Source: a virus (Duplodnaviria > Heunggongvirae > Uroviricota > Caudoviricetes). Taken from it: a stretch of DNA of 14,398 bases. The stretch lies in IMG/VR virus record IMGVR_UViG_2548876961_000004. One strand, 5' to 3'. Under the pieces are notes generated by a model that worked only from the letters and a program-made list of their open reading frames with translations, was not told the origin of the DNA and ran no database searches. Position 1 is the stretch's first letter. The number at the start of each line of letters is the position of its first letter. This document shows, in pieces, positions 1 through 14,398 of this stretch. Position numbers and translations under genes: made by a program.

Positions 1-80
1 TGTTGGTACTGACTGATGGCGCTCTGGTCTGCGGCATTGTGGTATTGCTGTGGCCGATGATGAAAGAACAGAATGAATAA
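1..80 (+). CDS. 3' end of an upstream ORF (partial; hydrophobic C-terminus ...LVLTDGALVCGIVVLLWPMMKEQNE, stop TAA 78-80); product unknown
   Basis: Open frame from position 3 running to TAA at 78-80; hydrophobic stretch suggests a membrane segment. Only 26 codons are visible, so the call is weak. Confidence 0.3.
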   Translation, partial: LVLTDGALVCGIVVLLWPMMKEQNE

Positions 81-83
81 TTC

Positions 84-113
84 TTGACTTTTTTGTTTAC
101 TGTTTATTAAAAA
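84..113 (+). promoter_or_regulatory. Candidate late promoter (pR'-like): TTGACT at 84-89, A/T-rich -10-like hexamer 17-18 bp downstream (TTAAAA/TAAAAA at 107-113)
   Basis: Perfect -35 hexamer TTGACT (same as recalled lambda pR' -35), moderate -10 match, and a strong intrinsic terminator about 180 nt downstream, matching the lambda pR'-6S RNA-tR' layout upstream of the lysis genes. Confidence 0.35.
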
Positions 114-266
114 ATCAACCGCATGGTGAATCCTCCTTGGAGGGGCTAAATGATCGAGTTTTAAGGGCACGTAGCGAGTTCTGTTTGATCATTGCAGAAC
201 TTAGCGGGAGGCGCCATGCGTACATCACTAATGTTATTTCCTTCTATCATTTTCCTTGTGAGTTCT

Positions 267-293
267 GGCTGCGCATGGCGCGGCCTTTTTTTT
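267..293 (+). terminator. Rho-independent terminator (tR'-like): stem GGCTGCGC / GCGCGGCC, loop ATG, followed by T8
   Basis: 8-bp GC-rich stem (one G-U pair) at 267-274 and 278-285 followed directly by eight T residues at 286-293. Confidence 0.6.
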
Positions 294-482
294 ATGACCT
301 GCCACTGGCAGATGGTCATCCTGTGATTTGATTCCGGTTCCGGCTTTTTAACTCTGTTCCTGTACACGGGAGAAATTCTATGTCGATTAATCGTTATGAT
401 ATTGGTTACAAGAAGTACCACGTATTGTGTTGAGATAGAAAGCATGGTGCCAGAGGTAAATGCAGCAGCATAATAAAAAAGA

Positions 483-522
483 GCCAGCGCAGAAGAGAAC
501 GGGTAAAAGAGTCTGCGCTGGC
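483..522 (-). terminator. 11-bp perfect inverted repeat (GCCAGCGCAGA ... TCTGCGCTGGC) with 18-nt loop; on the minus strand it is followed by CTCTTTTTTATT, i.e. a minus-strand-oriented intrinsic-terminator-like hairpin
   Basis: Stem arms at 483-493 and 512-522; A-rich run 471-480 on the + strand becomes a U-tract 3' of the hairpin on the - strand. Confidence 0.3.
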
Positions 523-639
523 GTGGGGATATTCCCCGTGGAGAAATGATATGTAACACACATCGGGAACCTTTCTATATAAACATTATCATTATTGTCA
601 ATCATAACAGTCAGGTATTATGACGTTTATGCATCAGGG

Positions 640-666
640 CCATCAGGAATTAACTGGTGGCTTTTT
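640..666 (+). terminator. Terminator-like or attenuator hairpin (CCATCAG / CTGGTGG stem with one G-U pair, 7-nt loop) followed by CTTTTTATT, 35 nt upstream of the holin start
   Basis: Stem arms at 640-646 and 654-660, T5 run at 662-666. Confidence 0.3.
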
Positions 667-701
667 ATTGTTGTCAGCTTCCGGATAACGGGAGACGGGG
701 T

Positions 702-917
702 ATGTACCAGATGGAAAAAATAACAACAGGTGTGTCATACACCACGTCAGCGGTGGGGACGGGATACTGGCTACTGCAGTTGCTGGACAAAGTCTCCCCA
801 TCCCAGTGGGTGGCAATAGGCGTATTGGGTAGCTTGGTGTTTGGCTTGCTGACGTATCTGACAAACCTTTATTTCAAGATTAAAGAAGATAAGCGTAAGG
901 CTGCGAGAGGTGAATAA
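702..917 (+). CDS. S: Class II holin (pinholin), phage 21 S-like, with dual-start motif (Met1 at 702, Met4 at 711)
   Basis: 71-aa product [71 protein letters not shown] with two TM segments and a charged C-terminus, closely resembling the recalled S21 pinholin. GGAGACGGGG RBS upstream; stop TAA overlaps the next start (TAATG). Confidence 0.9.
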
Positions 918-1414
918 TGTCGCCATCATTACGCAAGGCTGTTGCTGCTGCTATTGGTGGTGGGGCTGCTGCCATAGCGTCTGTGCTCATCACTGGTCCG
1001 AGTGGTGACGATGGCCTGGAAGGTGTCAGCTACATACCATACGAAGATATCGTTGGCGTATGGACTGTATGTCACGGACACACCGGAAAAGACATCATTC
1101 CCGGTAAAACGTATACCGAAGCAGAATGCAAAGCCCTCCTGAATAAAGACCTTGCCACGGTCGCCAGACAAATTAACCCGTACATCAAAGTCGATATACC
1201 GGAAACAACGCGCGGCGCTCTTTACTCGTTCGTTTACAACGTGGGCGCTGGTAATTTCAGAACATCGACGCTTCTTCGCAAAATAAACCAGGGTGATATC
1301 AAAGGCGCATGTGATCAGCTACGGCGCTGGACATACGCTGGCGGTAAGCAATGGAAAGGGCTGATGACTCGCCGCGAGATTGAGCGTGAAGTCTGTTTGT
1401 GGGGGCAACAATGA
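917..1414 (+). CDS. R: SAR endolysin (phage 21 R-like lysozyme/muramidase with N-terminal signal-anchor-release domain)
   Basis: 165-aa product with Gly/Ala-rich weakly hydrophobic N-terminus ([23 protein letters not shown]) followed by a lysozyme-like catalytic region ([17 protein letters not shown]); start overlaps holin stop; stop overlaps Rz start (ATGA). Confidence 0.92.
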
Positions 1415-1878
1415 GCAGAGTAACCGCGATTATCTCCGCTCTGGTTATCTGCATCATCGTCTGCCAGTCATGGGCGGTTAATCATTACCGTGATAACGCC
1501 ATCGCCTATAAAGAACAGCGTGATAAAAAAGTCAGTGAGCTGAAGCAGGCGACCGCCACCATTACTGACATGCAGCAGCGCCAGCGTGCTGCTGATGCAC
1601 TCGATGCTAAATACACGAAGGAGTTAGCTGATGCGAAAGCTAAAAATGATGCTCTTCGGCGCAAGCTTGATAATGGTGGTCGGGTGTTCGTCAAAGGAAA
1701 ATGCCCTGTGCCATCCTCAGACGAAACCTCCAGCGCCTCCGGCATGGGCAATGATGCCACCGTCGAACTCTCTCCAGTTGCTGGACGAAACGTTCTCGGT
1801 ATCCGGGACGGAATTATCCGCGACCAAACAGCACTGAGAACGCTTCAGGAATACATCAGGACGCAATGCCTTCGATGA
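1411..1878 (+). CDS. Rz: Rz inner-membrane spanin (i-spanin)
   Basis: 155-aa product [40 protein letters not shown]... with N-terminal TM and coiled-coil periplasmic domain, very similar to recalled lambda Rz; ATG at 1411 overlaps endolysin stop. Confidence 0.9.
1631..1837 (+). CDS. Rz1: Rz1 outer-membrane lipoprotein spanin (o-spanin), embedded in the +1 frame of Rz
   Basis: 68-aa product [44 protein letters not shown]...: signal peptide with lipobox VVGC and proline-rich mature region as in lambda Rz1; AAGGAG RBS 7 nt upstream of the ATG. Confidence 0.85.
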
Positions 1879-2052
1879 TAGCGATAATTTTACTCATCAT
1901 CCTTCACATCTGGCTCTGTAGACAGGGTGGTGCTCACTTCTGGAGTGAATCATGGTTAAACATCTCATTGCTGATGCTTGATATTGAGCATCTGGCGCGC
2001 GGTAAGGGGCTGCGTTGAGATAAGAGCCAGTCATTAAAAATACCTGGATTTA

Positions 2053-2076
2053 GCCTCGCATTCGCGGGGCTTTTTT
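2053..2076 (+). terminator. Rho-independent terminator downstream of the lysis cassette: stem GCCTCGC / GCGGGGC (one G-U pair), loop ATTC, then T6
   Basis: Stem arms at 2053-2059 and 2064-2070, T run at 2071-2076. Confidence 0.45.
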
Positions 2077-2079
2077 ATT

Positions 2080-2123
2080 GCCATTACAAAAGCCACTCCC
2101 TACAGAGTGGCTTTGATAATGGC
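2080..2123. repeat. 44-bp imperfect palindrome / extended hairpin: outer arms GCCATTA/TAATGGC, 2x2 internal loop, inner 10-bp perfect arms AAAGCCACTC/GAGTGGCTTT, 6-nt loop
   Basis: Directly read from sequence (outer arms 2080-2086 and 2117-2123; inner arms 2089-2098 and 2105-2114). No flanking U-tract on either strand, so not a classical intrinsic terminator. Confidence 0.5.
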
Positions 2124-2506
2124 TTATACCCTACACGGGATAACTTAACTGATATCCCTTTTAACGGATAAAGGTATTCAAGCCTGACACATCATGCGCT
2201 GTATCGTCGCTGTATTCCCGCATTAACCATGACCGTAGCCCGACGGGGAACTCCTTCTGCGCGAGTGTGCGGGAATAATCAAAAACGATGCACACCGGGT
2301 TTTTACCGCGCTAATGATTCGCGGGTTTGTCCCTCATGCTCGCCAGTCCTGTGCGGGGGTGGAAGAAACAGGACACTCACACAGATTCTTGTGGGTCGAT
2401 GCTATTCCTTTCTGGATTATCCCGATGCCATTCATGCAAGGGCTGTATCAGACGTTCGTCATGGCTTTCAGGCTGACGGCTCCTCCCGGTGGGGTGGCCT
2501 GCCACG

Positions 2507-2518
2507 GGGCGGGAGCGT
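2507..2518. other. Candidate cosN (cohesive-end site) with variant core GGGCGGGAGCGT, flanked by ACG and CGCGG as in lambda (ACG-GGGCGGCGACCT-CGCGGG)
   Basis: About 17 of 24 positions match the recalled lambda cosN region, with divergence concentrated in the middle of the 12-nt overhang. Location about 175 bp upstream of the small terminase start matches lambda (Nu1 starts about 190 bp from the left end). Confidence 0.4.
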
Positions 2519-2690
2519 CGCGGAAAAAGGCTAGTTTTTGCATTTTTATCGGCCACCATCATCTTTGCATCTTATTGATTATTAATGGTTATTTGTTTTT
2601 TGTATGTCGAATTGAGTGTTTTTTGTTCGACGTCGAACGCGTTTTCTTAAAGTTGTTCGCACGATGCATGTTTAAAGCTCTCCGGAGGAA
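2519..2690 (+). promoter_or_regulatory. Candidate cosB-like terminase-binding region: A/T-rich, direct repeats TGTTTTTTGT (2594-2603, 2617-2626), repeated TTGTTCG motifs, and a perfect 14-bp palindrome GTTCGACGTCGAAC (2625-2638)
   Basis: Repeats read directly from sequence; position between the putative cosN and the small terminase gene is analogous to lambda cosB (R sites plus IHF site). Confidence 0.35.
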
Positions 2691-2692
2691 AT

Positions 2693-3184
2693 ATGGATCA
2701 TGAGTTGAAAAACCTGGTGCTGAATATTAATCAACTGGCGGCTTTATCTGGTCTGCACCGCCAGACTGTCGTGGCAAGACTGAAAAACATTCGTCCCGCT
2801 GGTGGACATGACAAACTCAAGCTATACCGGTTGACCGATATTCTGACTGAATTTATGGGGTTACCACCGCCGGTTGCTGAGGGCGAAATGGATCCACATG
2901 AACGCAAAGCCTGGTATCAGTCTGAACGTGAGCGTCTTAAGTTCGAACAGGAAACGGCACAACTCATTCCGGCCAGTGATGTCAGACGGGAGTTTGCCAT
3001 CTGGGCAAAAGCGGTCGTGCAGGTGCTGGAGACATTACCGGATATTCTGGAACGTGACTGTGGTCTGCAGCCTGCCGCTGTGAGCCGTGTTCAGTCCATT
3101 ATTGATGATCTGCGCGATCAGATAGCCCTGCGGGTGACCGAAGCAGGTGCGGATGATGAGGAGGAATTACAGCAGGAGGAGTAA
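2693..3184 (+). CDS. Terminase small subunit (Nu1-like function; N-terminal HTH DNA-binding domain, acidic C-terminus)
   Basis: 163-aa ORF immediately upstream of and overlapping (TAATG) the large terminase; N-terminal helix-turn-helix-like segment NINQLAALSGLHRQTVVARLKNI; GGAGG RBS 4 nt upstream; synteny cos-terS-terL. Confidence 0.8.
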   Translation: MDHELKNLVLNINQLAALSGLHRQTVVARLKNIRPAGGHDKLKLYRLTDILTEFMGLPPPVAEGEMDPHERKAWYQSERERLKFEQETAQLIPASDVRREFAIWAKAVVQVLETLPDILERDCGLQPAAVSRVQSIIDDLRDQIALRVTEAGADDEEELQQEE

Positions 3185-5286
3185 TGCTGAATCAGGAAAC
3201 CGCAAAGGCAGCACGAACCGATTCAGGTTATATCCTTCGCGCACCGAGACGAATGCGGGTTGCTGATGCCGTTGCTCAGTATATGCGGGTGCCCATGGGG
3301 GCCGGGAACTCAGTCCCGTGGGATCCGCTGGTGGCACCGTATGTTATTGAGCCGATGAACTGCCTGGCCTCGCGTGAATACGACGCAGTGATATTTGTTG
3401 GCCCGGCACGAACCGGCAAGACTATCGGCCTGATTGACGGCTGGGTGATTTACAACGTGATTTGCGATCCTGCGGATATGCTGATCATTCAGATGACGGA
3501 GGAAAAAGCCCGCGAACACTCCAAAAAACGACTCGCCAGAACGTTTCGCGTCAGCCCGGAAGTGGTCAGTCGCCTGAGTCCGAACAAAAATGACAACAAC
3601 GTTTATGACAGAACATTCCTTGCTGGCAACTACCTGAAAATCGGCTGGCCGTCAGTCAATATCATGTCCTCATCAGATTATAAATGCGTGGCGCTGACGG
3701 ATTATGACCGTTTTCCGGAAGATATTGATGGCGAGGGGGATGCCTTCTCTCTTGCCTCAAAACGTACCACCACATTTATGTCCAGTGGTATGACGCTGGT
3801 GGAGAGTTCCCCCGGCAGGGATGTGAAGGATGTGAAATGGCGACGGACTTCACCGCATGAGGCTCCACCAACCACGGGGATACTGTCGCTCTATAACCGT
3901 GGCGATCGCCGTCGCTGGTACTGGCCCTGTCCACACTGTGGTGAGTATTTTCAGCCCTGCGGCGATGTGGTTGCTGGTTTCCGTGATATTGCCGATCCCG
4001 TGCTGGCAAGTGAGGCGGCTTATATTCAGTGTCCTTCCTGTTCAGGACGGATTATGCCTGAACAAAAACGTGAGCTGAACGGACGTGGGGTCTGGTTGCG
4101 GGATGGTGAATCCATCAATGCGGATGGTAGTCGTTATGGTGATCCCCGACGCTCACGTATTGCGTCATTCTGGATGGAGGGTCCGGCAGCTGCTTACCAG
4201 ACACTCTCGCAACTCGTTTACAAACTGCTTACTGCAGAACAGGAATACGAGACAACCGGAAGTGAAGAAACACTCAAGACGGTTATCAATACCGACTGGG
4301 GATTACCTTATCTTCCCCGCGCCAGCATGGAGCAACGAAAAAGTGAACTGCTTGAGCAGCGGGCAGAGCCAGTTCCTTCCAGCAGTGTGCCGGATGGCGT
4401 TAATTTCCTTGTGGCGACAGTGGATGTGCAGGCGGGACGTCATCGCCGTTTTGTGGTTCAGGTAACGGGCTATGGCAGCCGTGGCGAACGCTGGATTATT
4501 GATCGTTACAACATCACGCAGTCATTGCGCGGTGACAGCGACGGTGAGAGCCAGCGAATTGATCCGGCCAGCTATCCGGAAGACTGGGATGTCCTGCTGA
4601 CGGATGTTTTTCATAAAAGCTGGCCGCTGGCCTCCGATCCTTCTCAACAAATGCGACTGATGGCAATGGCGGTGGACTCCGGCGGTGAAGACGGGGTCAC
4701 TGATAATGCCTATAAATTCTGGCGTCGTTGCCGTCGTGATGGCCTTGGTAAACGTATTTACCTGTTTAAGGGCGACAGCATCCGGCGCGCAAAACTGATC
4801 ACCCGTACATTCCCTGATAACACCGGACGAACGGGCCGACGGGCGCAGGCCGCAGGTGATGTGCCGCTCTGGCTTCTTCAGACGGATGCACTGAAAGACC
4901 GGGTGAATAACGCGTTATGGCGTGACTCTCCAGGTCCCGGCTATGTGCATTTCCCTGACTGGCTGGGGAGCTGGTTTTACGACGAACTGACGTATGAAGA
5001 GCGGAGTAGTGACGGGAAATGGAGTAAGCCGGGTCGCGGTGCCAACGAAGCTTTTGACCTGATGGTGTATGCCGAGGCTCTGGTCATTCTGCATGGATAC
5101 GAAAAGATCCGCTGGCCGGATGCACCGGGGTGGGCGAGCCGGGAAACCTGGCTGGAGAGTGTCCCGGACAGTACCGAACCGTCACCCTCACCGGAACCGG
5201 TATCCACGCCTGTTAAAAAACAAAAACGGAAGAAAACAGTAACTGACGATGTTAACCCCTGGCTGACTTCCGGAGGATGGTTATGA
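3184..5286 (+). CDS. Terminase large subunit, lambda gpA family (ATPase plus nuclease)
   Basis: 700-aa product with P-loop/Walker A (VGPARTGKT) and a Cys cluster (CPHCGEYF...CPSCSG) reminiscent of gpA-type terminases; CAGGAGGAG RBS; C-terminal Pro/Ser/Lys-rich tail. Confidence 0.92.
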   Translation: MLNQETAKAARTDSGYILRAPRRMRVADAVAQYMRVPMGAGNSVPWDPLVAPYVIEPMNCLASREYDAVIFVGPARTGKTIGLIDGWVIYNVICDPADMLIIQMTEEKAREHSKKRLARTFRVSPEVVSRLSPNKNDNNVYDRTFLAGNYLKIGWPSVNIMSSSDYKCVALTDYDRFPEDIDGEGDAFSLASKRTTTFMSSGMTLVESSPGRDVKDVKWRRTSPHEAPPTTGILSLYNRGDRRRWYWPCPHCGEYFQPCGDVVAGFRDIADPVLASEAAYIQCPSCSGRIMPEQKRELNGRGVWLRDGESINADGSRYGDPRRSRIASFWMEGPAAAYQTLSQLVYKLLTAEQEYETTGSEETLKTVINTDWGLPYLPRASMEQRKSELLEQRAEPVPSSSVPDGVNFLVATVDVQAGRHRRFVVQVTGYGSRGERWIIDRYNITQSLRGDSDGESQRIDPASYPEDWDVLLTDVFHKSWPLASDPSQQMRLMAMAVDSGGEDGVTDNAYKFWRRCRRDGLGKRIYLFKGDSIRRAKLITRTFPDNTGRTGRRAQAAGDVPLWLLQTDALKDRVNNALWRDSPGPGYVHFPDWLGSWFYDELTYEERSSDGKWSKPGRGANEAFDLMVYAEALVILHGYEKIRWPDAPGWASRETWLESVPDSTEPSPSPEPVSTPVKKQKRKKTVTDDVNPWLTSGGWL

Positions 5287-5495
5287 ACCAGAATGATATC
5301 GAAGCCATGATTCAGCGTTATACGGAAGCTGAAATGGCGGTGCTGGACGGAAAATCCGTCACCTTTAATGGTCAGCAGATGACCATGGAAAACTTATCTG
5401 AGATCCGGCAGGGACGGCAGGAGTGGGAGCGCCGCCTTGCGGCTCTGATTACACGACGACGGGGGCATCCCGGGTACCGGCTGGCGAGGTTCTGA
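5283..5495 (+). CDS. Head-tail joining protein, lambda gpW-like
   Basis: 70-aa product MNQNDIEAMIQRYTEAEMAVLDGKSVTFNGQQMTMENLSEIRQGRQEWERRLAALITRRRG..., same size and character as recalled lambda W (68 aa); ATG at 5283 overlaps terminase stop (ATGA) with GGAGG 6 nt upstream. An in-frame ATG at 5277 has no spacing to the RBS, so 5283 is preferred. Confidence 0.8.
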   Translation: MNQNDIEAMIQRYTEAEMAVLDGKSVTFNGQQMTMENLSEIRQGRQEWERRLAALITRRRGHPGYRLARF

Positions 5496-7004
5496 TGGCA
5501 ATTCTTGATGATGTGATTGGCGTTTTTTCACCAGGATGGAAAGCGGCAAGGCTGCGTTCCCGTGCGGTGATCCAGGCTTATGAGGCCGTAAAAACGACGC
5601 GGACACACAAAGCCCGGCGGGAAAACCGAACTGCCGACCAGTTAAGCCAGTACGGGGCCGTGTCGTTACGTGAGCAGGCCCGTTACCTTGATAACAACCA
5701 CGATCTGGTTATTGGTGTATTTGACAAGCTGGAAGAACGGGTGGTGGGGAAAAACGGGATTATTGTCGAGCCACATCCGGTATTACGCAATGGGGCCATT
5801 GCCCGTGATCTGGCAGCGGAGATACGCACCCGATGGAGTGAATGGTCTGTCAGTCCGGAAGTCACCGGGCAGTTTACCCGTCCGATGCTGGAACGTCTGA
5901 TGCTGCGTACCTGGCTGCGCGATGGTGAGGTGTTTGCCCAGATGGTTTCCGGGCGCATAAACAGCCTGACGCCTTCTGCCGGTGTTCATTTCTGGCTGGA
6001 GGCGCTCGAGCCAGACTTTATTCCCATGACCAGTGATGAGAGCAACAGGCTGAATCAGGGCGTGTTTGTTGATGACTGGGGGCGTCCCGAAAAATATCTG
6101 GTGTATAAAAGCCGTCCCGTATCCGGACGGCAGATGGAAACCAAAGAAGTGGATGCAGAGCGAATGCTGCATCTTAAATTTGTTCGCCGTCTGCACCAGA
6201 TGCGCGGGACGTCTTTGTTGTCCGGTGTGCTGATCCGCCTCAGTGCCCTGAAAGAGTATGAGGATTCTGAGCTGACTGCAGCAAGGATCGCCGCTGCTCT
6301 GGGGATGTACATCCGGAAAGGCGATGGGCAGAGCTATGAACCGGATGGTAATGGCAGCAAGGATAAGGAACGCGAGCTTACCATTCAGCCAGGCATTATT
6401 TACGACGATCTGAAACCCGGCGAAGAAATCGGAATGGTGAAGTCGGATCGCCCCAATCCTAACCTTGAAACTTTTCGTAATGGTCAGTTGCGTGCCGTGG
6501 CGGCGGGCAGTCGTCTGAATTTTTTCCAGTACAGCGCGCAACTATAACGGCACTTACAGCGCCCAGCGTCAGGAGCTGGTTGAATCCACTGATGGCTACC
6601 TGATCCTGCAGGACTGGTTTATTGGTGCCGTCACCCGCCCGATGTATCGTGCCTGGCTGAAACAGGCTGTGGCATCCGGTGTTATCAGGCTACCCCGCGA
6701 TCTTGACCGTTCTTCACTGTATACCGCGGTGTATTCCGGACCGGTGATGCCGTGGATTGACCCTGTTAAGGAGGCTGAGGCCTGGAAAATTCAGATTCGT
6801 GGTGGAGCAGCGACAGAATCAGACTGGGTACGTGCAGGTGGTCGTAATCCGGATGATGTCAAACGTCGGCGCAAGGCCGAAATTGATGAAAACCGCAAGC
6901 TGGATCTGGTATTTGATACCGATCCGGCCAGTGATAAAGGAGGCAGCAGTGCCGCAACGAAACGACAGGAGCCGCAGCACACCGACGACCAGTCCGAAGA
7001 ATAA
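5495..7004 (+). pseudogene. Portal protein (lambda gpB-like), interrupted by a frameshift at a T6 homopolymer (6520-6525): N-terminal part in frame 5495..6547, C-terminal part in the +1 frame 6519..7004
   Basis: ATG at 5495 overlaps gpW stop (TGATG). The frame stops at 6545-6547, while the adjoining +1 frame is open from 6519 and encodes a plausible continuation (...SSTARNYNGTYSAQRQELVESTDGYLILQDWFIGAVTRPMYRAWL...). Removing one T from the T6 run restores a single ORF of about 500 aa, the expected portal size. Confidence 0.85.
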
Positions 7005-7017
7005 TTCCTGGTTCAGG

Positions 7018-8976
7018 ATGCAGGCTGGTCACCAGAGTGACGCGGATATTTATATTTATGACGAGATTGGTTTCTGGGGTGTTACAGCGAAGCAGTTTAT
7101 CAGTGATCTGAATGCACTGGGCGATATCACCCACATTAATCTCAATATCAATTCACCGGGTGGCGATGTCTTTGAAGGCATCGCCATTTTTAATGCACTG
7201 AAAACACATGGTGCGTCCATTACCGTTTATGTCGACGGTGTGGCGGCGTCAATGGCGTCGGTCATTGCGATGGTGGGAAAACCGGTCATTATGCCGGAAA
7301 ACTCCTTCATGATGATTCATAAACCATTTGGCTTTACGGGCGGTGATGCGGAGGACATGCGCACCTATGCCGACCTGCTCGATAAAGTTGAGGCGGTTCT
7401 GTTACCCGCTTATGCACAGAAAACCGGGAAAACCACCGATGAAATTGCTGCCATGCTGGCGGATGAGACCTGGATGTCCGGTGCCGAATGTCTGGCACAT
7501 GGATTTGCTGATCAGGTGACGCCAGCCGTTAAGGCAATGGCATGTATTCAGTCAAAACGTACAGAGGAATTTAAAAAGATGCCGGAATCCATTCGAAACA
7601 TGATTACTCCGCCACGCAACAGTGCTCCACGCGTACAGGATGATGGACCTGCAGCCTCCCGGACGCCAGTGCAGGCAGCAGCACCTGTGGTGGATGAAAA
7701 CAGTATCCGTGCGCAGGTACTGGCAGAGCAAAAAGCGCGTGTAAACGGTATTAATGATCTGTTTGCCATGTTTGGCGGGCGTTATCAGACGCTGCAGGCT
7801 CAGTGTCTTGCCGATCCTGAATGTTCGCTGGAGCAGGCCCGCGAAAAGCTGTTGAACGAGATGGGGCGCGAGTCCACGCCATCTAATAAAAATACCCCGG
7901 CTCATATTTATGCCGGAAACGGTAATTTTGTGGGGGATGGGATCCGCCAGGCGCTGATGGCGCGTGCCGGATTTGAAAAAAACGAACGTGATAATGTCTA
8001 CAACGGGATGACCCTGCGTGAATATGCCCGTATGTCACTGACTGAACGGGGTATTGGGGTTTCCAGTTATAACCCGATGCAGATGGTCGGTGCGGCGTTC
8101 ACACACAGTACGTCTGACTTCGGTAATATTCTGCTGGATGTTGCGAACAAAGCCATTCTGCAGGGCTGGGAAGATGCCCCTGAAACCTATGAACAGTGGA
8201 CGCGGAAAGGTCAGTTGTCTGATTTTAAAATTGCCCATCGTGTGGGTATGGGGGGCTTCAGTGCTCTGCGTCAGGTGCGTGAAGGGGCGGAATATAAATA
8301 CGTCACCACCGGAGATAAACAGGCCACTATTGCACTGGCGACCTATGGCGAGCTGTTCAGTATCACCCGTCAGGCCATTATCAATGATGATCTGAATATG
8401 CTGACCGATGTCCCGATGAAACTGGGCCGTGCGGCGAAATCCACTATTGCCGATCTGGTTTATGCCATTCTGACGTCTAACCCGAAAATCTCCACAGATA
8501 ATGTAAGTCTGTTCGATAAAGCGAAACATGCAAACGTACTGGAGAGCGCTGCAATGGACGTGGCATCGCTGGATAAAGCCCGCCAGTTGATGCGCGTTCA
8601 GAAAGAGGGGGAGCGTCATCTGAATATTCGTCCTGCGTTCGTACTGGTACCGACGGCGATGGAGTCTGTTGCTAACCAGGTCATTCGCTCCTCAAGTGTC
8701 AAGGGGGCTGACATTAACGCCGGTATTATTAACCCGGTGAAAGATTTTGCGACCGTTATTGCAGAGCCTCGTCTTGATGATAACAGCCAGACCACCTTCT
8801 ACCTGGCTGCGTCAAAAGGCTCCGATACGATTGAAGTGGCTTATCTCAACGGTGTGGATACGCCATATATTGATCAGATGGAGGGCTTCAGTGTGGATGG
8901 CGTGACAACGAAAGTGCGTATTGACGCCGGTGTCGCGCCAGTTGATCACCGCGGTCTGGTGAAATGTACGGCGTAA
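7018..8976 (+). CDS. Prohead protease (ClpP/S49-like) - scaffold - major capsid protein fusion polyprotein
   Basis: 652-aa product: N-terminal ClpP-like serine protease domain (DADIYIYDEIGFWGV...NINSPGGDVFEGIAIFNAL...VDGVAASMASVIAMVG), central Ala/Pro/Gln-rich linker, C-terminal ~300-aa HK97-fold-type capsid domain. Starts 13 nt after the portal stop; start codon choice uncertain (weak RBS). Confidence 0.85.
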   Translation: MQAGHQSDADIYIYDEIGFWGVTAKQFISDLNALGDITHINLNINSPGGDVFEGIAIFNALKTHGASITVYVDGVAASMASVIAMVGKPVIMPENSFMMIHKPFGFTGGDAEDMRTYADLLDKVEAVLLPAYAQKTGKTTDEIAAMLADETWMSGAECLAHGFADQVTPAVKAMACIQSKRTEEFKKMPESIRNMITPPRNSAPRVQDDGPAASRTPVQAAAPVVDENSIRAQVLAEQKARVNGINDLFAMFGGRYQTLQAQCLADPECSLEQAREKLLNEMGRESTPSNKNTPAHIYAGNGNFVGDGIRQALMARAGFEKNERDNVYNGMTLREYARMSLTERGIGVSSYNPMQMVGAAFTHSTSDFGNILLDVANKAILQGWEDAPETYEQWTRKGQLSDFKIAHRVGMGGFSALRQVREGAEYKYVTTGDKQATIALATYGELFSITRQAIINDDLNMLTDVPMKLGRAAKSTIADLVYAILTSNPKISTDNVSLFDKAKHANVLESAAMDVASLDKARQLMRVQKEGERHLNIRPAFVLVPTAMESVANQVIRSSSVKGADINAGIINPVKDFATVIAEPRLDDNSQTTFYLAASKGSDTIEVAYLNGVDTPYIDQMEGFSVDGVTTKVRIDAGVAPVDHRGLVKCTA

Positions 8977-8996
8977 ACGTCGCAGACAACAACTCT

Positions 8997-9019
8997 GATG
9001 GCCCGTAAGGGCTTTTTTT
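8997..9019 (+). terminator. Weak rho-independent terminator after the capsid gene (GCCC-GTAA-GGGC followed by T7)
   Basis: Short GC stem at 9001-9012 followed by TTTTTTT at 9013-9019, 25 nt after the capsid stop; likely partial terminator. Confidence 0.45.
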
Positions 9020-9062
9020 GTACCTGAAATCAGCCCCTGAACGGGGCTGTGCGGAGACAGTT

Positions 9063-9386
9063 ATGGCAAAGAATTTTGTAGAAGAAGGAAAAACGGTGGC
9101 GATTGTTGCCAGTGCAGCCATCAGCAGCGGAGATCTGGTGCAGGTGGGCGATGTTTTTGCGGTGGCGCTGACCGATATTCCACAGGGTGAAACAGGCGAC
9201 GGCATGACCGAAGGTGTGTTTATGCTGCCTAAGCTGAAAACGGATGACATGAAAACGGGTAAGAAGGTTTATCTGAAGTCAGGAAAAGTTCAGCTGACTA
9301 ACAGCGGCTCTGATCCGCTGGTCGGGGTTGTCTGGGCAGATGCCGGAACCAGTGCAGAAGAAGTGCCGGTAAAACTCAATGTCTGA
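9063..9386 (+). CDS. Small head-associated protein (DUF2190-like; putative head decoration or stabilisation protein)
   Basis: 107-aa ORF with GGAGA RBS 6 nt upstream of ATG 9063, located directly after the capsid gene; Gly/Val/Ala-rich beta-type sequence. Function inferred from position and general resemblance only. Confidence 0.65.
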   Translation: MAKNFVEEGKTVAIVASAAISSGDLVQVGDVFAVALTDIPQGETGDGMTEGVFMLPKLKTDDMKTGKKVYLKSGKVQLTNSGSDPLVGVVWADAGTSAEEVPVKLNV

Positions 9387-9654
9387 TCCCTTTTCCCGGC
9401 TGGCAGCGCGTATGGATGCTATCACGGTCAGAAAGATGGGAAAGACAGCCTCGATTAATGATGTCGATATGACTGTGATCCCGGGAGAAACACTGGCAGA
9501 GCTGAATGCTCTGTCCGGACCTGCGGTCTCTCTGGTGGTGTTTTCTTCGGGATACCGCCCACGGCGCGGGGATCGCGTTGTTTATGACGGACAACAATGG
9601 ACGGTCACACGGCATGAACGCTTTAACGGTAAGCCAATGATCTTTATTGAGTAA
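9379..9654 (+). CDS. Head-tail connector / head completion protein, lambda FII-like
   Basis: 91-aa ORF overlapping the previous stop (ATGTCTGA); C-terminal motif RRGDRVVYDGQQWTVTRHE resembles recalled lambda FII (RRGDTLTIGEENFWVDRV); position before gpZ as in lambda. Confidence 0.7.
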   Translation: MSDPFSRLAARMDAITVRKMGKTASINDVDMTVIPGETLAELNALSGPAVSLVVFSSGYRPRRGDRVVYDGQQWTVTRHERFNGKPMIFIE

Positions 9655-9665
9655 AGAGGTGTGGG

Positions 9666-10244
9666 ATGAAGGGGCTTGAGAATGCCATCCGCAATCTGAA
9701 CAGCCTTGATACCCGTATGGTGCCACAGGCCAGCGCATGGGCGATAAACCGTGTGGCACAGAAAGCGGGCTCGGTTGCCACCCGGCAGGTTGCCGGGAAT
9801 ACCGTTGCGGGAGATAACCAGGTGAAAGGGATCCCCCTGAAACTGGTTCGTCAGCGTGTCCGGGTGTTTAAAGCCAGTCCGTCAGGAAAAATGACGGCCA
9901 GGATCCGCGTTAACCGGGGCAATCTGCCCGCCATTAAGCTGGGGACAGCCCGGGTCAGACTGGCCCAGCGTGGTGGAAAACTGCAGTACCGTGGCAGTGT
10001 GCTGAAGGTGGGTAAATATCTTTTCCGGGATGCGTTTATTCAGCAACTGGCGAATGGTCGCTGGCATGTGATGCGGCGTATTGATGGCAAAAATCGTTAC
10101 CCCATTGATGTGGTGAAAATCCCGCTGTCCGGACCGCTGACACAGGCATTTGAAGATGCCCGCGACCGCATCATTGCTGCGGAAATGCCGAAACAGCTGG
10201 GGTATGCACTGAAACAACAACTGAGGTTATGGCTGACCCGATGA
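9666..10244 (+). CDS. Z: Tail completion protein, lambda gpZ-like
   Basis: 192-aa product (same length as lambda Z) with strong recalled similarity (MKGLENA..., ...NGRWHVMRRIDGKNRYPIDVVKIPLSGPLTQAF..., ...LGYALKQQLR...); AGAGG RBS 6 nt upstream. Confidence 0.88.
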   Translation: MKGLENAIRNLNSLDTRMVPQASAWAINRVAQKAGSVATRQVAGNTVAGDNQVKGIPLKLVRQRVRVFKASPSGKMTARIRVNRGNLPAIKLGTARVRLAQRGGKLQYRGSVLKVGKYLFRDAFIQQLANGRWHVMRRIDGKNRYPIDVVKIPLSGPLTQAFEDARDRIIAAEMPKQLGYALKQQLRLWLTR

Positions 10245-10642
10245 ACCGACATACACAAATCCGCCAGGTCGTACTGGCACGCCTTCGGGAACAGTGTGGA
10301 GACAGCGCCACGTTTTTTGACGGGCTTCCGGCATTTGTTGATGCGCAGGAACTGCCTGCCGTGGCGGTGTGGCTGAGTGATGCTCAGTACACCGGAAAAA
10401 TGACGGATGAAGATGACTGGCAGGCTGTTCTGCATATTGCTGTCTTCATCCGGGCACAGGCACCGGATTCAGAGCTGGATATGTGGATGGAGAGCACCAT
10501 TTTCCCGGCCCTGAATGATGTATCGGCACTTTCCGGACTCATCGACACCCTGATCCCACTCGGTTTTAACTATCAACGTGATAATGAGATGGCCACCTGG
10601 GCGATGGCGGAAATCACGTACCAGATCACGTACACGAATTAA
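10241..10642 (+). CDS. U: Tail terminator protein, lambda gpU-like (alternative upstream in-frame ATG at 10229)
   Basis: Product MNRHTQIRQVVLARL...ATFFDGLPAFVDAQELPAVAVWLSDAQYTG...PDSELDMWMESTIFPALND...ITYQITY matches recalled lambda U along its length; ATG at 10241 overlaps Z stop (ATGA). Confidence 0.88.
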   Translation: MNRHTQIRQVVLARLREQCGDSATFFDGLPAFVDAQELPAVAVWLSDAQYTGKMTDEDDWQAVLHIAVFIRAQAPDSELDMWMESTIFPALNDVSALSGLIDTLIPLGFNYQRDNEMATWAMAEITYQITYTN

Positions 10643-10652
10643 GGAGGTGGTA

Positions 10653-11396
10653 ATGACCACGCCAAATCCACTGGCAAAGACGAAAGGTGCGGGGACGACG
10701 TTCTGGATGTATACCGGCAACGGCGATGCGTTTGCGAACCCTTTGTCGGACACTGACTGGCTGCGTCTTGCGATGGTGAAGGATCTGCAACCTGGCGAAA
10801 TGACCGCTGATGCAGAAGATGACACTTATCTCGATGATGAAGATGCAGACTGGAAAACGACAACCCAGGGGCAGAAATCCGTTGGTGATACTTCGGCGAC
10901 GCTGGCCTGGCGTCCGGGTGACAGCGGGCAGAAAAAACTGGTTCAGTTGTTCGACTCCGGTGAAGTCTGCGCGTTTCGTATCAAATATCCCAACGGCACT
11001 GTTGATGTTTTCCGCGGCTGGCTGAGCTCACTGGGTAAAACCATTGCCTCAAAAGACGTGATGACCCGCACAGTGAAAATCAGCGGTGTGGGGCGTCCAT
11101 ATCTGGCAGAGGAGGGCACTGAAACTGTGGGCGTTACCGGGCTGACGGTGGCACCGGCATCCGCCAGTGTCAATGTGGGAGCAACCACCACGCTGACCTT
11201 TACAGTAAAACCTGACGGAGCCAGTGACAAAGCGATCAGTGTGCATTCGACAGATCCACAGACAGCCACTGTGACCCTGAACGGACTTGTGGCCACGGTG
11301 AAAGGCGTGAAGCAGGGCAGCGTCAGCATTGTGGGCATGACCGCTGACGGGAATTTTGTGGCTGTGGCTGCGGTGACTGTCAGCGCTGCAGGTTAA
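10653..11396 (+). CDS. V: Major tail tube protein, lambda gpV-like, with C-terminal Ig-like (Big_2-type) domain
   Basis: 247-aa product MTTPNPLAKTKGAGTTFWMYTGNGDAFANPLSDTDW...YLDDEDADWKTTTQGQKSVGDTS...NGTVDVFRGWLSSLGK... closely parallels recalled lambda V (246 aa); strong AAGGAGG RBS 5 nt upstream. Confidence 0.93.
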   Translation: MTTPNPLAKTKGAGTTFWMYTGNGDAFANPLSDTDWLRLAMVKDLQPGEMTADAEDDTYLDDEDADWKTTTQGQKSVGDTSATLAWRPGDSGQKKLVQLFDSGEVCAFRIKYPNGTVDVFRGWLSSLGKTIASKDVMTRTVKISGVGRPYLAEEGTETVGVTGLTVAPASASVNVGATTTLTFTVKPDGASDKAISVHSTDPQTATVTLNGLVATVKGVKQGSVSIVGMTADGNFVAVAAVTVSAAG

Positions 11397-11416
11397 CAGG
11401 ACGATACTCATCATTT

Positions 11417-11440
11417 GCCCCGGTTATCCGGGGCTTTTTT
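11417..11440 (+). terminator. Rho-independent terminator between V and G (GCCCCGG-TTAT-CCGGGGC followed by T6)
   Basis: Perfect 7-bp GC-rich stem at 11417-11423 and 11428-11434, then TTTTTT at 11435-11440. Confidence 0.55.
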
Positions 11441-11456
11441 GCAGGTGGAGAACATG

Positions 11457-11843
11457 ATGTTTCTGAAACAGGGCACGTTTAATTATGAAAAGCAGTCCGT
11501 GGTGCTCAGTGAGCTGTCCGGGCTGCAGAGAATTGAATATCTGGCGTTTGTTCAGCAGCGAACGGCAAAGTTTGATGCCGAAGAGGGAGAACTGCCGGAG
11601 GCTGAACGACAGATTGCTTTTCTGCGGATGGGGATGGATATCAATGCCTGGCTGGTTTCCCGCTCACTGTGGAATGCGGAACAGTCTCAGGATGTTGAGA
11701 CGCTTTGCGCATCCGTTATTACAACATGGTCGTATGATGCCCTGGGAGCGGGGGCGGAGATGGTTCTGTCGCTGAGCGGTATGGGAGCCATTGAGAATGC
11801 CGGGGATTTGGAGCATGAGGTGCTGACGCCGGAAAAGTCCTGA
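11457..11843 (+). CDS. G: Tail assembly chaperone, lambda gpG-like (alternative start ATG 11454)
   Basis: Product MFLKQGTFNYEKQSVVLSELSGLQRIEYLAF... parallels recalled lambda G (MFLKTESFEHNGVTVTLSELSALQRIEHLAL...); GGTGGAG RBS 6 nt upstream. Confidence 0.85.
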   Translation: MFLKQGTFNYEKQSVVLSELSGLQRIEYLAFVQQRTAKFDAEEGELPEAERQIAFLRMGMDINAWLVSRSLWNAEQSQDVETLCASVITTWSYDALGAGAEMVLSLSGMGAIENAGDLEHEVLTPEKS

Positions 11844-12181
11844 CGCGGGAAATGCAGTTTGTCATGCGGCTTGCCCGGGAGTTCCGGCGGGCAGACTGGC
11901 GGCGGATGCTGTCGGAAATGTCGGCCACTGAGCTTGGTGAGTGGGGCGATTATTTCCGGATGCAGAGCTTCAGTGATGTGTGGATGGATGCGCAGTTTGC
12001 CTCGCTGAAGGCATTGATCGTGAGAATGGTGTCCGGTAGCAGTGATGCTGCGGTGGCTGATTTCAGCCTTTTACCGGAAGAGAACGGGATACCGGAGCGA
12101 ACGGACGAAGAACTGATGCATCTTGGGGAAGGTATTTCCGGAGGTGTGCGTTATGGACCAGATAGCCAACCTGGTCATTGA
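11457..12181 (+). CDS. T: Tail assembly chaperone G-T fusion produced by -1 programmed ribosomal frameshift near the end of G (shift window 11819-11843; likely at GGAAAAG 11831-11837); T-specific part 11838..12181
   Basis: The -1 frame relative to G is open from 11819 and runs to TGA 12179-12181, encoding ...VLTREMQFVMRLAREFRRADWRRMLSEMSATELGEWGDYFRMQSF...; the arrangement is the conserved G/G-T frameshift of lambdoid tail operons. Confidence 0.7.
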
Positions 12182-14393
12182 TTTGGGGATTGATGCGGCA
12201 GAGTTTAAAAATGAAATTCCCCGTATCAAAAACCTTCTGAATGGTGCAGCCAGCGATGCAGAACGGTCTTCTGCCCGTATGCAGCGTTTTATGGAGCGTC
12301 AGACTCAGGCCGCCCGGCAGACAATGCAGGCGGCTTCTTCGGCTGCAACAGCCGCATCCGTCCATGCGCAGACGGTGGAGAAGAGCGCACAGGCTCATGA
12401 ACGCATGGCCCGCGAGGTGGAGCAAACCCGCCAGCGTATGGAGGCACTGAGCCAGAAAATGCGCGAGGAACAGGCGCAGGCCATGGCTCTGGCGGAGGCT
12501 CAGGATAAAGCGGCTGCTGCGTTTTATCGTCAGATTGACAGTGTGAAACAGGCCGGTGCGGGGCTGCAGGAATTACAGCGTATTCAGCAACAGATCCGAC
12601 AGGCCAGAAACAGTGGCGGGATTGGTCAGCAGGATTATCTGGCGCTGATTTCTGAGGTTACGGCGAAAACCCGTGTTCTTACACAGGCTGAGGAAGAGGC
12701 TACCCGACAGAAAGTGGCGTTTATCCGTCAGCTTAAAGAGCAGGCAACCCGCCAGAATCTTTCTTCTTCTGAGTTGCTTCGTGCTAAGGCTGCCCAGCTG
12801 GGGGTAAGCAGTGCTGCAGAAGTGTATATCCGCAAAATGGAGCAGGCAGGAAAAGCCACGCATTCGCTGGGTCTGAAAAGTGCAGCAGCCCGTCAGGAGA
12901 TAGGCGTTCTGATAGGTGAACTGGCCCGCGGCAATTTAGGTGCGCTGAGGGGATCCGGAATAACGCTGGCTAACCGTGCCGGGTGGATAGACACACTGAT
13001 GTCACCGAAAGGCATGATGCCAGGAGCGGTTATTGGCGGTATTGCCGCGGCTGTCTATGGTCTGGGTAAAGCCTGGTATGACGGTCAGAAGGAGGGGGAA
13101 GAATTTAACCGCCAGCTGTCGCTGACGGGGCATTATGCCGGAGTCACTGCCGGGCAGCTGTGGACGCTCAGTCGTGCTATTTCCGGGAATGGTATCACGC
13201 AACATGCTGCAGCCGGTGCGCTGGCTCAGGTGGTGGGGAGTGGTGCATTTCGTGGAAACGATATCGGTATGGTGGCGAGAGCTGCCGCACAGATGGAGCG
13301 ATCGGTTGGCCAGTCGGTCAGCGATACCATAAATCAGTTTAAGCGGCTGAAGGATGATCCTGTAAATGCCGCGAAGGCTCTGGACAATGAGCTGCATTTT
13401 CTTACTGCCACTCAGCTTGAGCAGATACGCGTCCTTGGGGAGCAGGGGCGGTCCAGTGATGCTGCACGGATAGCCATGTCTGCACTGGCAGAGGAAACCG
13501 GTCGGCGTACTGCGGATATTGATAATAACCTCAATGCGCTTGGCAGTACGCTGAAGTATCTGTCTGATTTGTGGAGTCGTTTCTGGGATGCGGCCATGAA
13601 TATTGGTCGTGAAGACTCGCTGGATGAACAGATTGCCGCTTTACAGGAGAAAGTGTCGCGGGCGAAAAGACTCCCCTGGACGGCATCATCTTCTCAGGTT
13701 GAATACGATCAGCAGCGTCTTAACGATCTTCAGGAGAAAAAACGCCAGAAGGATTTGCAGGATGCAAAAGAGCAGGCAGAGCGGAATTATCAGGAGCAAC
13801 AGAAACGCCGTAATGCTGAAAATGCTGCACTGAACCGGATGAATGAAACGGAAGCAGCACGACATCAGCGTGAAATAGCGCGTATTAATGCCATGCAGTA
13901 CGCCGATCAGGCTGTCAGGGATGCGGCGATACAACGTGAAAATGAACGTTACGAGAAAGCCCTGGCATCCGGTAAGAAAAAAACACGCGAAACCCGTAAT
14001 GATGAGGCCACCCGGTTATTGCTGCAGTACAGTCAGCAACAGGCACAGGTGGAAGGACAGATTGCTGCTGCCAGACAGTCAGCAGGCATTGCCACGGAAA
14101 GGATGACAGAAGCGCGTAAACAGCTTCTGGCTCTGCAGCAGCGCATCAGCGACCTGGACGGGAAAAAACTGACGGCAGATGAAAAGAGTGTGCTGGCCCG
14201 TAAAGATGAACTGATTCAGGCACTGACGCTGCTGGATGTAAAACAGCAGGAGCTTCAGAAACAGACGGCACTCAACGAGCTGAAGAAAAAAACAATTCAG
14301 CTGACCAGTCAACTGGCTGAAGAAGAGCGCGCTCAGCGTCAGCATGAACCGCCCCGGGAATCCTGGAGACTAAACTCCCTGAGAAAGAGGTAA
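12153..14393 (+). CDS. H: Tail tape measure protein, lambda gpH-like (N-terminal ~745 aa; ORF stops at TAA 14391-14393, 5 nt before the window end)
   Basis: ATG 12153 with GGAGG RBS 8 nt upstream, overlapping the end of T; N-terminus MDQIANLVIDLGIDAAEFKNE... parallels recalled lambda H (MAEPVGDLVVDLSLDAARFDEQ...); long Ala/Gln/Arg-rich coiled-coil region typical of tape measure proteins. Confidence 0.88.
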   Translation: MDQIANLVIDLGIDAAEFKNEIPRIKNLLNGAASDAERSSARMQRFMERQTQAARQTMQAASSAATAASVHAQTVEKSAQAHERMAREVEQTRQRMEALSQKMREEQAQAMALAEAQDKAAAAFYRQIDSVKQAGAGLQELQRIQQQIRQARNSGGIGQQDYLALISEVTAKTRVLTQAEEEATRQKVAFIRQLKEQATRQNLSSSELLRAKAAQLGVSSAAEVYIRKMEQAGKATHSLGLKSAAARQEIGVLIGELARGNLGALRGSGITLANRAGWIDTLMSPKGMMPGAVIGGIAAAVYGLGKAWYDGQKEGEEFNRQLSLTGHYAGVTAGQLWTLSRAISGNGITQHAAAGALAQVVGSGAFRGNDIGMVARAAAQMERSVGQSVSDTINQFKRLKDDPVNAAKALDNELHFLTATQLEQIRVLGEQGRSSDAARIAMSALAEETGRRTADIDNNLNALGSTLKYLSDLWSRFWDAAMNIGREDSLDEQIAALQEKVSRAKRLPWTASSSQVEYDQQRLNDLQEKKRQKDLQDAKEQAERNYQEQQKRRNAENAALNRMNETEAARHQREIARINAMQYADQAVRDAAIQRENERYEKALASGKKKTRETRNDEATRLLLQYSQQQAQVEGQIAAARQSAGIATERMTEARKQLLALQQRISDLDGKKLTADEKSVLARKDELIQALTLLDVKQQELQKQTALNELKKKTIQLTSQLAEEERAQRQHEPPRESWRLNSLRKR

Positions 14394-14398
14394 ACAGG

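Follow-up and report, generated by a model that had tools for sequence, protein, structure and literature searches.

The 746-aa tape measure reading frame at the end of the DNA analysed here (the window, 14,398 nt) is almost certainly the combined product of an IS629-family insertion in the tape measure gene of the Escherichia coli O157:H7 prophage Sp3 and of a contig break inside that repeated element. The window is one entire draft contig, AIBY01000122.1 (14398 nt), of assembly GCA_000447025.2. In the proposed sequence of events, an IS629-family element would have transposed after nt 2192 of the tape measure gene, in codon 731 of 1021, duplicating the target GCA. The tape measure frame would then be read into the left end of the element, where it gains 16 foreign codons and a TAA, giving an apparent 746-aa ORF. 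Since the element is present in many copies in the genome, the assembler could not get through it, and the contig includes no more than its first 54 nt. What is left of the gene lies, ahead of gpM- and gpL-like genes, on a separate contig of 1608 nt that starts 55 nt before the right end of the element.

The truncated reading frame and the intact gene

The ORF extends from an ATG at 12153 to a TAA at 14391-14393 and encodes 746 aa, in agreement with the approximately 745 aa given in a preliminary description of the window; with the TTG at 12123 as start codon the product would have 756 aa. Genes with Phage_TAC_2 and Phage_tail_T domains lie upstream. The features of the ORF and of the window end are:

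12153-14344, + strand: 5' part of the tape measure gene, 2192 nt (codons 1-730 and two bases of codon 731)
14342-14344, + strand: target site GCA of a 3-bp duplication, the second copy of which is at AIBY01000236.1 56-58
14343-14393, + strand: IS-derived tail of the ORF, from translation, 16 codons (HEPPRESWRLNSLRKR) and the stop codon TAA at 14391-14393
14345-14398, + strand: left end of an IS629/IS1203-family (IS3 family) element, 54 nt, consisting of the left inverted repeat TGAACCGCCCCGG... and leader

Pfam finds two tape measure domains in the 746-aa ORF, TMP_2 at aa 228-426 (2.6e-49) and TMP_4 at aa 616-693 (2.1e-16), and does not find Tape_meas_lam_C (PF09718), which bears out the earlier remark that a lambda-type C-terminal region is missing. 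The intact orthologues, Sakai ECs_0837 and WP_000371994.1, are 3066 nt and 1021 aa long and carry TMP_2, TMP_4 and, at aa 811-885, Tape_meas_lam_C. The gene order in the matching genomes is G, T, tape measure and then gpM-, L-, K-, I- and J-like genes. By homology, by Pfam domains and by its position after G/T and before M, L, K, I and J the window ORF belongs with the gpH family, and it lacks PF09718; it is a truncated, not a complete, member of the lambda-type gpH family.

Lambda gpH itself is 853 aa in PDB 8iyk chain H, the length that had been cited for it. The alignment of the intact orthologue with it (E 7.9e-50) begins at the N-terminus (aa 3-57) and reaches the final residues (1019 versus 851); Tape_meas_lam_C is common to both proteins, and both genes sit in the order G, T, H, M, L, K, I, J. 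The native Sp3 protein is 168 aa longer than lambda gpH, and the break after aa 730, at about lambda gpH residue 574, removes roughly the last third. Lambda gpH was therefore the wrong yardstick for the loss: as the native protein has 1021 aa and is longer than gpH, the loss is about 291 aa, the last third of the protein, and not the approximately 100 aa first thought.

The position of the break is exact. The segment 12153-14344 is identical to nt 1-2192 of the EDL933 gene, with zero mismatches; the tape measure sequence proper comprises codons 1-730 (12153-14342), and codon 731 (14343-14345) straddles the junction. The native EDL933 sequence goes on as QHDLDIATVGMG... past the break, and the end of the window reads ...CAGCGTCAGCA/TGAACCGCCCCGGGAATCCTGGAGACTAAACTCCCTGAGAAAGAGGTAAACAGG. 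Homology to the intact gene stops exactly at 14344; the IS left inverted repeat starts with the next base, 14345, from which the sequence is TGAACCGCCCCGGG.... The 16-codon tail and its TAA are a by-product of the insertion and do not constitute a native C-terminus.

These data leave next to no probability for a genuinely shorter tape measure of 746 aa in a phage with a shorter tail, with a native TAA and a gpM-like gene directly after it, as the preliminary description had considered. The uninterrupted 746-aa ORF with its tape measure domains would suit such a protein, but the final 54 nt are IS and not phage sequence, and the same DNA in other strains, matched up to 14344 with no mismatch reported, runs on for another ~874-875 nt of tape measure coding in a 1021-aa gene. 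The 90%-identity cluster of the 746-aa protein has 10,008 members, most of which, among those listed, are 1021 aa, and the 746-aa sequence is confined to a single contig in a collection of ~15 billion proteins. Furthermore, what follows 14344 is the element rather than a gpM-like gene, and the same assembly contains the missing part of the tape measure gene. Tail length is not to be inferred from the 746-aa ORF.

A frameshift or nonsense mutation, with the C-terminal part directly downstream in another frame, was the other possibility raised, and its probability is also vanishingly small. Alleles of this type do exist: in other E. coli assemblies a change from A7 to A6 at gene nt 2134-2140 gives products of 716 and 283 aa. 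The A7 tract of the window (14286-14292) is intact, however; as far as 14344 the window and the intact gene agree at every base, and past that position the sequence is IS in every frame. Of the earlier alternatives, truncation with the remainder outside the window holds, the remainder being on AIBY01000236.1, and frameshifting does not, the interruption being an inserted 1.3-kb IS629-family element. A 283-aa C-terminal fragment with a GTG start was also encountered in the protein collection and was set aside as the A7-to-A6 frameshift allele of other assemblies, not of this strain. This fragment is on 136 contigs, and A6 alleles occur in Illumina/SPAdes contigs as well as in a 5.5-Mb contig; the change is probably a real frameshift allele, more than sequencing error alone.

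The insertion sequence end and the partner contig

When 59 nt, the 54 IS bases with 5 bases of flank, were used as a query against 5,426 complete E. coli genomes, 3,484 of them gave a total of 22,234 matching places, on chromosomes as well as plasmids, and the end of the window is therefore a dispersed repeat. The number of IS-end copies per genome found with this query has a median of 3 and a maximum of 50. In annotated genomes the matches directly precede genes labelled "IS3 family transposase" or "IS3-like element IS1203 family transposase", with programmed frameshift. Complete copies that begin with exactly these 54 nt have a length of 1310 bp, start with TGAACC and end with GGTTCA. They continue beyond the shared 54 nt as ATGACTAAAAAT, the start of orfA, such that the base after 14398 would be the A of the orfA ATG. 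Two full copies with identical ends, L018 and L019, encode an orfA product of 108 aa (HTH_Tnp_1) and an orfB product of 295 aa (rve integrase core); their NCBI annotation includes a programmed frameshift.

The element has three features of the IS3 family: i) a left end with 5'-TG, TGAACCGCCCCGG, at 14345 and a right end with CA-3', ...CCGGGGCGGTTCA, at AIBY01000236.1 1-55; ii) a multi-copy, dispersed distribution; and iii) a direct duplication of the target, GCA, within the 3-4 bp of the family. IS629 duplicates 3-4 bp at its target, and 62% of its copies in O157:H7 are in prophages or prophage-like elements (Rump et al. 2011, PMC3271280). A second match to the IS inverted repeat, at 13443-13455 with 2 mismatches, is weak and within chance expectation.

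The contig on the other side of the element was predicted from the 1310-bp insertions with 3-bp duplications that other strains carry in the tape measure gene. It should open with ~54 nt from the right end of the element, go on with a second GCA and the tape measure gene from nt 2193, and encode the corresponding partial protein. Guesses built with the IS1203-type right end of strain 319 (...RKPGAV...) had no match in the protein collection. The IS end of the window fits the L018/L019 group, copies that have 62 differences from the strain 319 IS1203 copy. A rebuilt guess of 309 aa (WQPEFTDKTLSRKTGAVQ followed by QHDLDIATVG... to the native C-terminus), equivalent to 18 codons of the IS right end, GCA and then tape measure aa 731-1021, gave exactly one match among the ~15 billion proteins. 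This protein is WP_024245068.1, "phage tail tape measure protein, partial", and it is encoded on AIBY01000236.1 (1608 nt) of the same assembly.

In AIBY01000236.1 the first 55 nt are identical to the IS right end; tape measure nt 2190-3066, of which the GCA is the first three bases, come next, and are followed by a gpM-like gene of 109 aa (Phage_min_tail) and the start of a gpL-like gene (Phage_tail_L). Its phage part has 0 mismatches to EDL933, and its tape measure product carries Tape_meas_lam_C (PF09718). The expectation that an H C-terminal domain and gpM- and gpL-like genes would be found downstream was sound, as all of these are on AIBY01000236.1; the suggestion that the domain would continue in another frame was not, as IS sequence follows 14344.

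When the C-terminal 291 aa were used in a homology search, the matches were all cluster representatives, and the partner fragment was not among them. Several proteins from that search (P0002-P0005) have the tape measure C-terminal region fused to unrelated N-termini: in P0003 a DUF1441 (terminase-small-like) N-terminus and in others, by Pfam listing, GpA_ATPase or gpJ FNIII-A segments. Such fusions point to recombination or rearrangement of prophages in other E. coli genomes, or to misassembly.

The two junctions read ...CAGCA/TGAACC in the window and ...GGTTCA/GCA/ACATGACC in AIBY01000236.1. The uninterrupted gene has a single GCA, at nt 2190-2192. With the IS sequence and one GCA removed, the window part and the AIBY01000236.1 part join into a gene of 3066 nt that is exactly the intact one. 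Given the matching ends and the duplicated target, we infer that a single complete IS copy, ~1310 bp in the full copies elsewhere, joins AIBY01000122.1 and AIBY01000236.1.

The reciprocal junctions bear on two further explanations. The first is that the tape measure/IS junction is an assembly chimera at a contig end and that the gene is intact in the real genome. The junction does lie no more than 54 nt from the end of a draft contig, and a search of 5,426 complete E. coli genomes gave no closed genome with an insertion at tape measure nt 2192/2193. Nevertheless, a chimera is highly improbable, as it would have to produce reciprocal junctions on two independent contigs, each at the exact IS terminus and with the same GCA duplicated; the data are also explained without any contig having an uninterrupted junction. 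The second is an IS-mediated deletion, inversion or rearrangement, by which the 3' part of the tape measure gene was lost or is not beside the other IS end. Such deletions are reported to diversify O157 strains (PMC3271280), and the window taken alone is compatible with one. On AIBY01000236.1, however, the IS right end is joined precisely to where the gene should resume, and the 3-bp duplication is perfect, an arrangement expected only of a simple insertion, and the chance of a rearrangement is accordingly very slim. A simple insertion of an IS629-family element, with the contig broken inside it, remains the explanation that we adopt.

The prophage that carries the insertion

Apart from the IS end, the window is shown with 100.0% identity over the full length of positions 1-14344 to several complete O157:H7 chromosomes, with no mismatches reported. 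In Sakai (NC_002695.2) the corresponding region, 901106-915449, has 3 mismatches to window 1-14344 and lies inside the annotated "prophage Sp3, lambda-like phage"; this near-identity places the window in Sp3/CP-933K. Judged by sequence identity, window 1-14344 is the lysis-to-tail late region of this defective lambdoid prophage of E. coli O157:H7.

The left end of the window is repeated as well. The first 120 nt are found in 690 genomes, in which they occur at a median of 5 places and are thus multi-copy. Contig AIBY01000122.1 is a unique island with a repeat at each end, neither of which was crossed by the assembler. That the frame stops right at the edge of the window, as had been pointed out, is real as a position but is an effect of the assembly: the contig breaks in a repeat. 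When an ORF ends a few dozen bases from a contig edge, a repeat or an IS terminus should be looked for before its length is read. Window 1-120 belongs to a lambdoid late-region gene of the DUF3927 family.

Sp3 has a disrupted portal and a disrupted integrase, repressor and replication genes are absent, and so are excision, replication and packaging (Asadulghani et al. 2009, PMC2669165). The decaying prophage suspected in the preliminary description is thus a documented one. Its portal gene is in two pieces:

5423-6547: portal piece 1, 374 aa, lambda-type, covering positions 3-324 of 354 of the Phage_portal_2 profile
6642-7004: portal piece 2, a 120-aa ORF in a frame that differs from that of piece 1; ECs_0827, a pseudogene in the Sakai annotation

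The split is also present in the complete O157:H7 genomes that match the window at full length. It is a lineage-wide defect of Sp3 that predates the IS insertion.

Window 6949-8976 is one gene of 675 aa with a ClpP-like prohead protease domain and a major capsid protein domain. NCBI labels it [quoted passage not shown], and the arrangement is known in these prophages. The fusion may explain why the "Head" function of Sp3 was scored absent in the Sakai prophage paper.

The truncated tape measure product, which is without its C-terminal third including Tape_meas_lam_C, a part that in lambda gpH reaches the conserved C-terminus, is expected to be non-functional. Its loss is unlikely to matter, because Sp3 was already without a working portal and integrase.

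Other insertions in the gene and known systems

Independent IS insertions are present in the Sp3 tape measure gene of 11 complete genomes, at two sites:

after nt 2246: IS at positions 5000-6309 of L003, duplication ATA (nt 2244-2246), 10 genomes, for example strain 319 (NZ_CP018241)
after nt 2506: IS at positions 5260-6569 of L004, duplication CAG (nt 2504-2506), strain NZRM4165 (NZ_CP032791)

The insertions of strain 319 and NZRM4165 are like that of the window in the gene hit and in orientation, and consist of 1310-bp elements with 3-bp duplications; NCBI marks the two halves of each interrupted gene as partial pseudogenes. The sites are 54 and 314 nt downstream of the site in the window, and between these elements and the L018/L019 copies, the ends of which match the window, 62-68 of 1310 nt are different. 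As both the sites and the element sequences differ, the insertion events are independent.

Three or more independent insertions fall between nt 2190 and 2510 of the Sp3 tape measure gene, a segment that could be a regional hot spot for IS629-family transposition. We consider this proposal doubtful; the query used joins only same-strand, nearby pieces, and the resulting detection bias accounts at least in part for both the apparent clustering and the common orientation. A true hot spot would point either to a structural or sequence preference of the transposase or to selection for the knockout of a tail gene in a resident defective prophage.

The insertion site is strain-specific and the phenomenon routine. 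Strain discrimination based on IS629 exists, and the site at nt 2192/2193 with its GCA duplication is a potential typing marker. No literature on IS629 in the O157 tape measure gene was found; IS629-family elements in O157:H7 prophages and a dead Sp3 are both already known, and there is little new biology in their combination. In contrast to known IS629/IS1203 insertions, the assembly here shows just the two ends of the element (54 and 55 nt). In its termini, its 3-bp duplication, its target in a prophage gene and its multi-copy state, the insertion is like the IS629/IS1203 insertions of other O157:H7 prophages.
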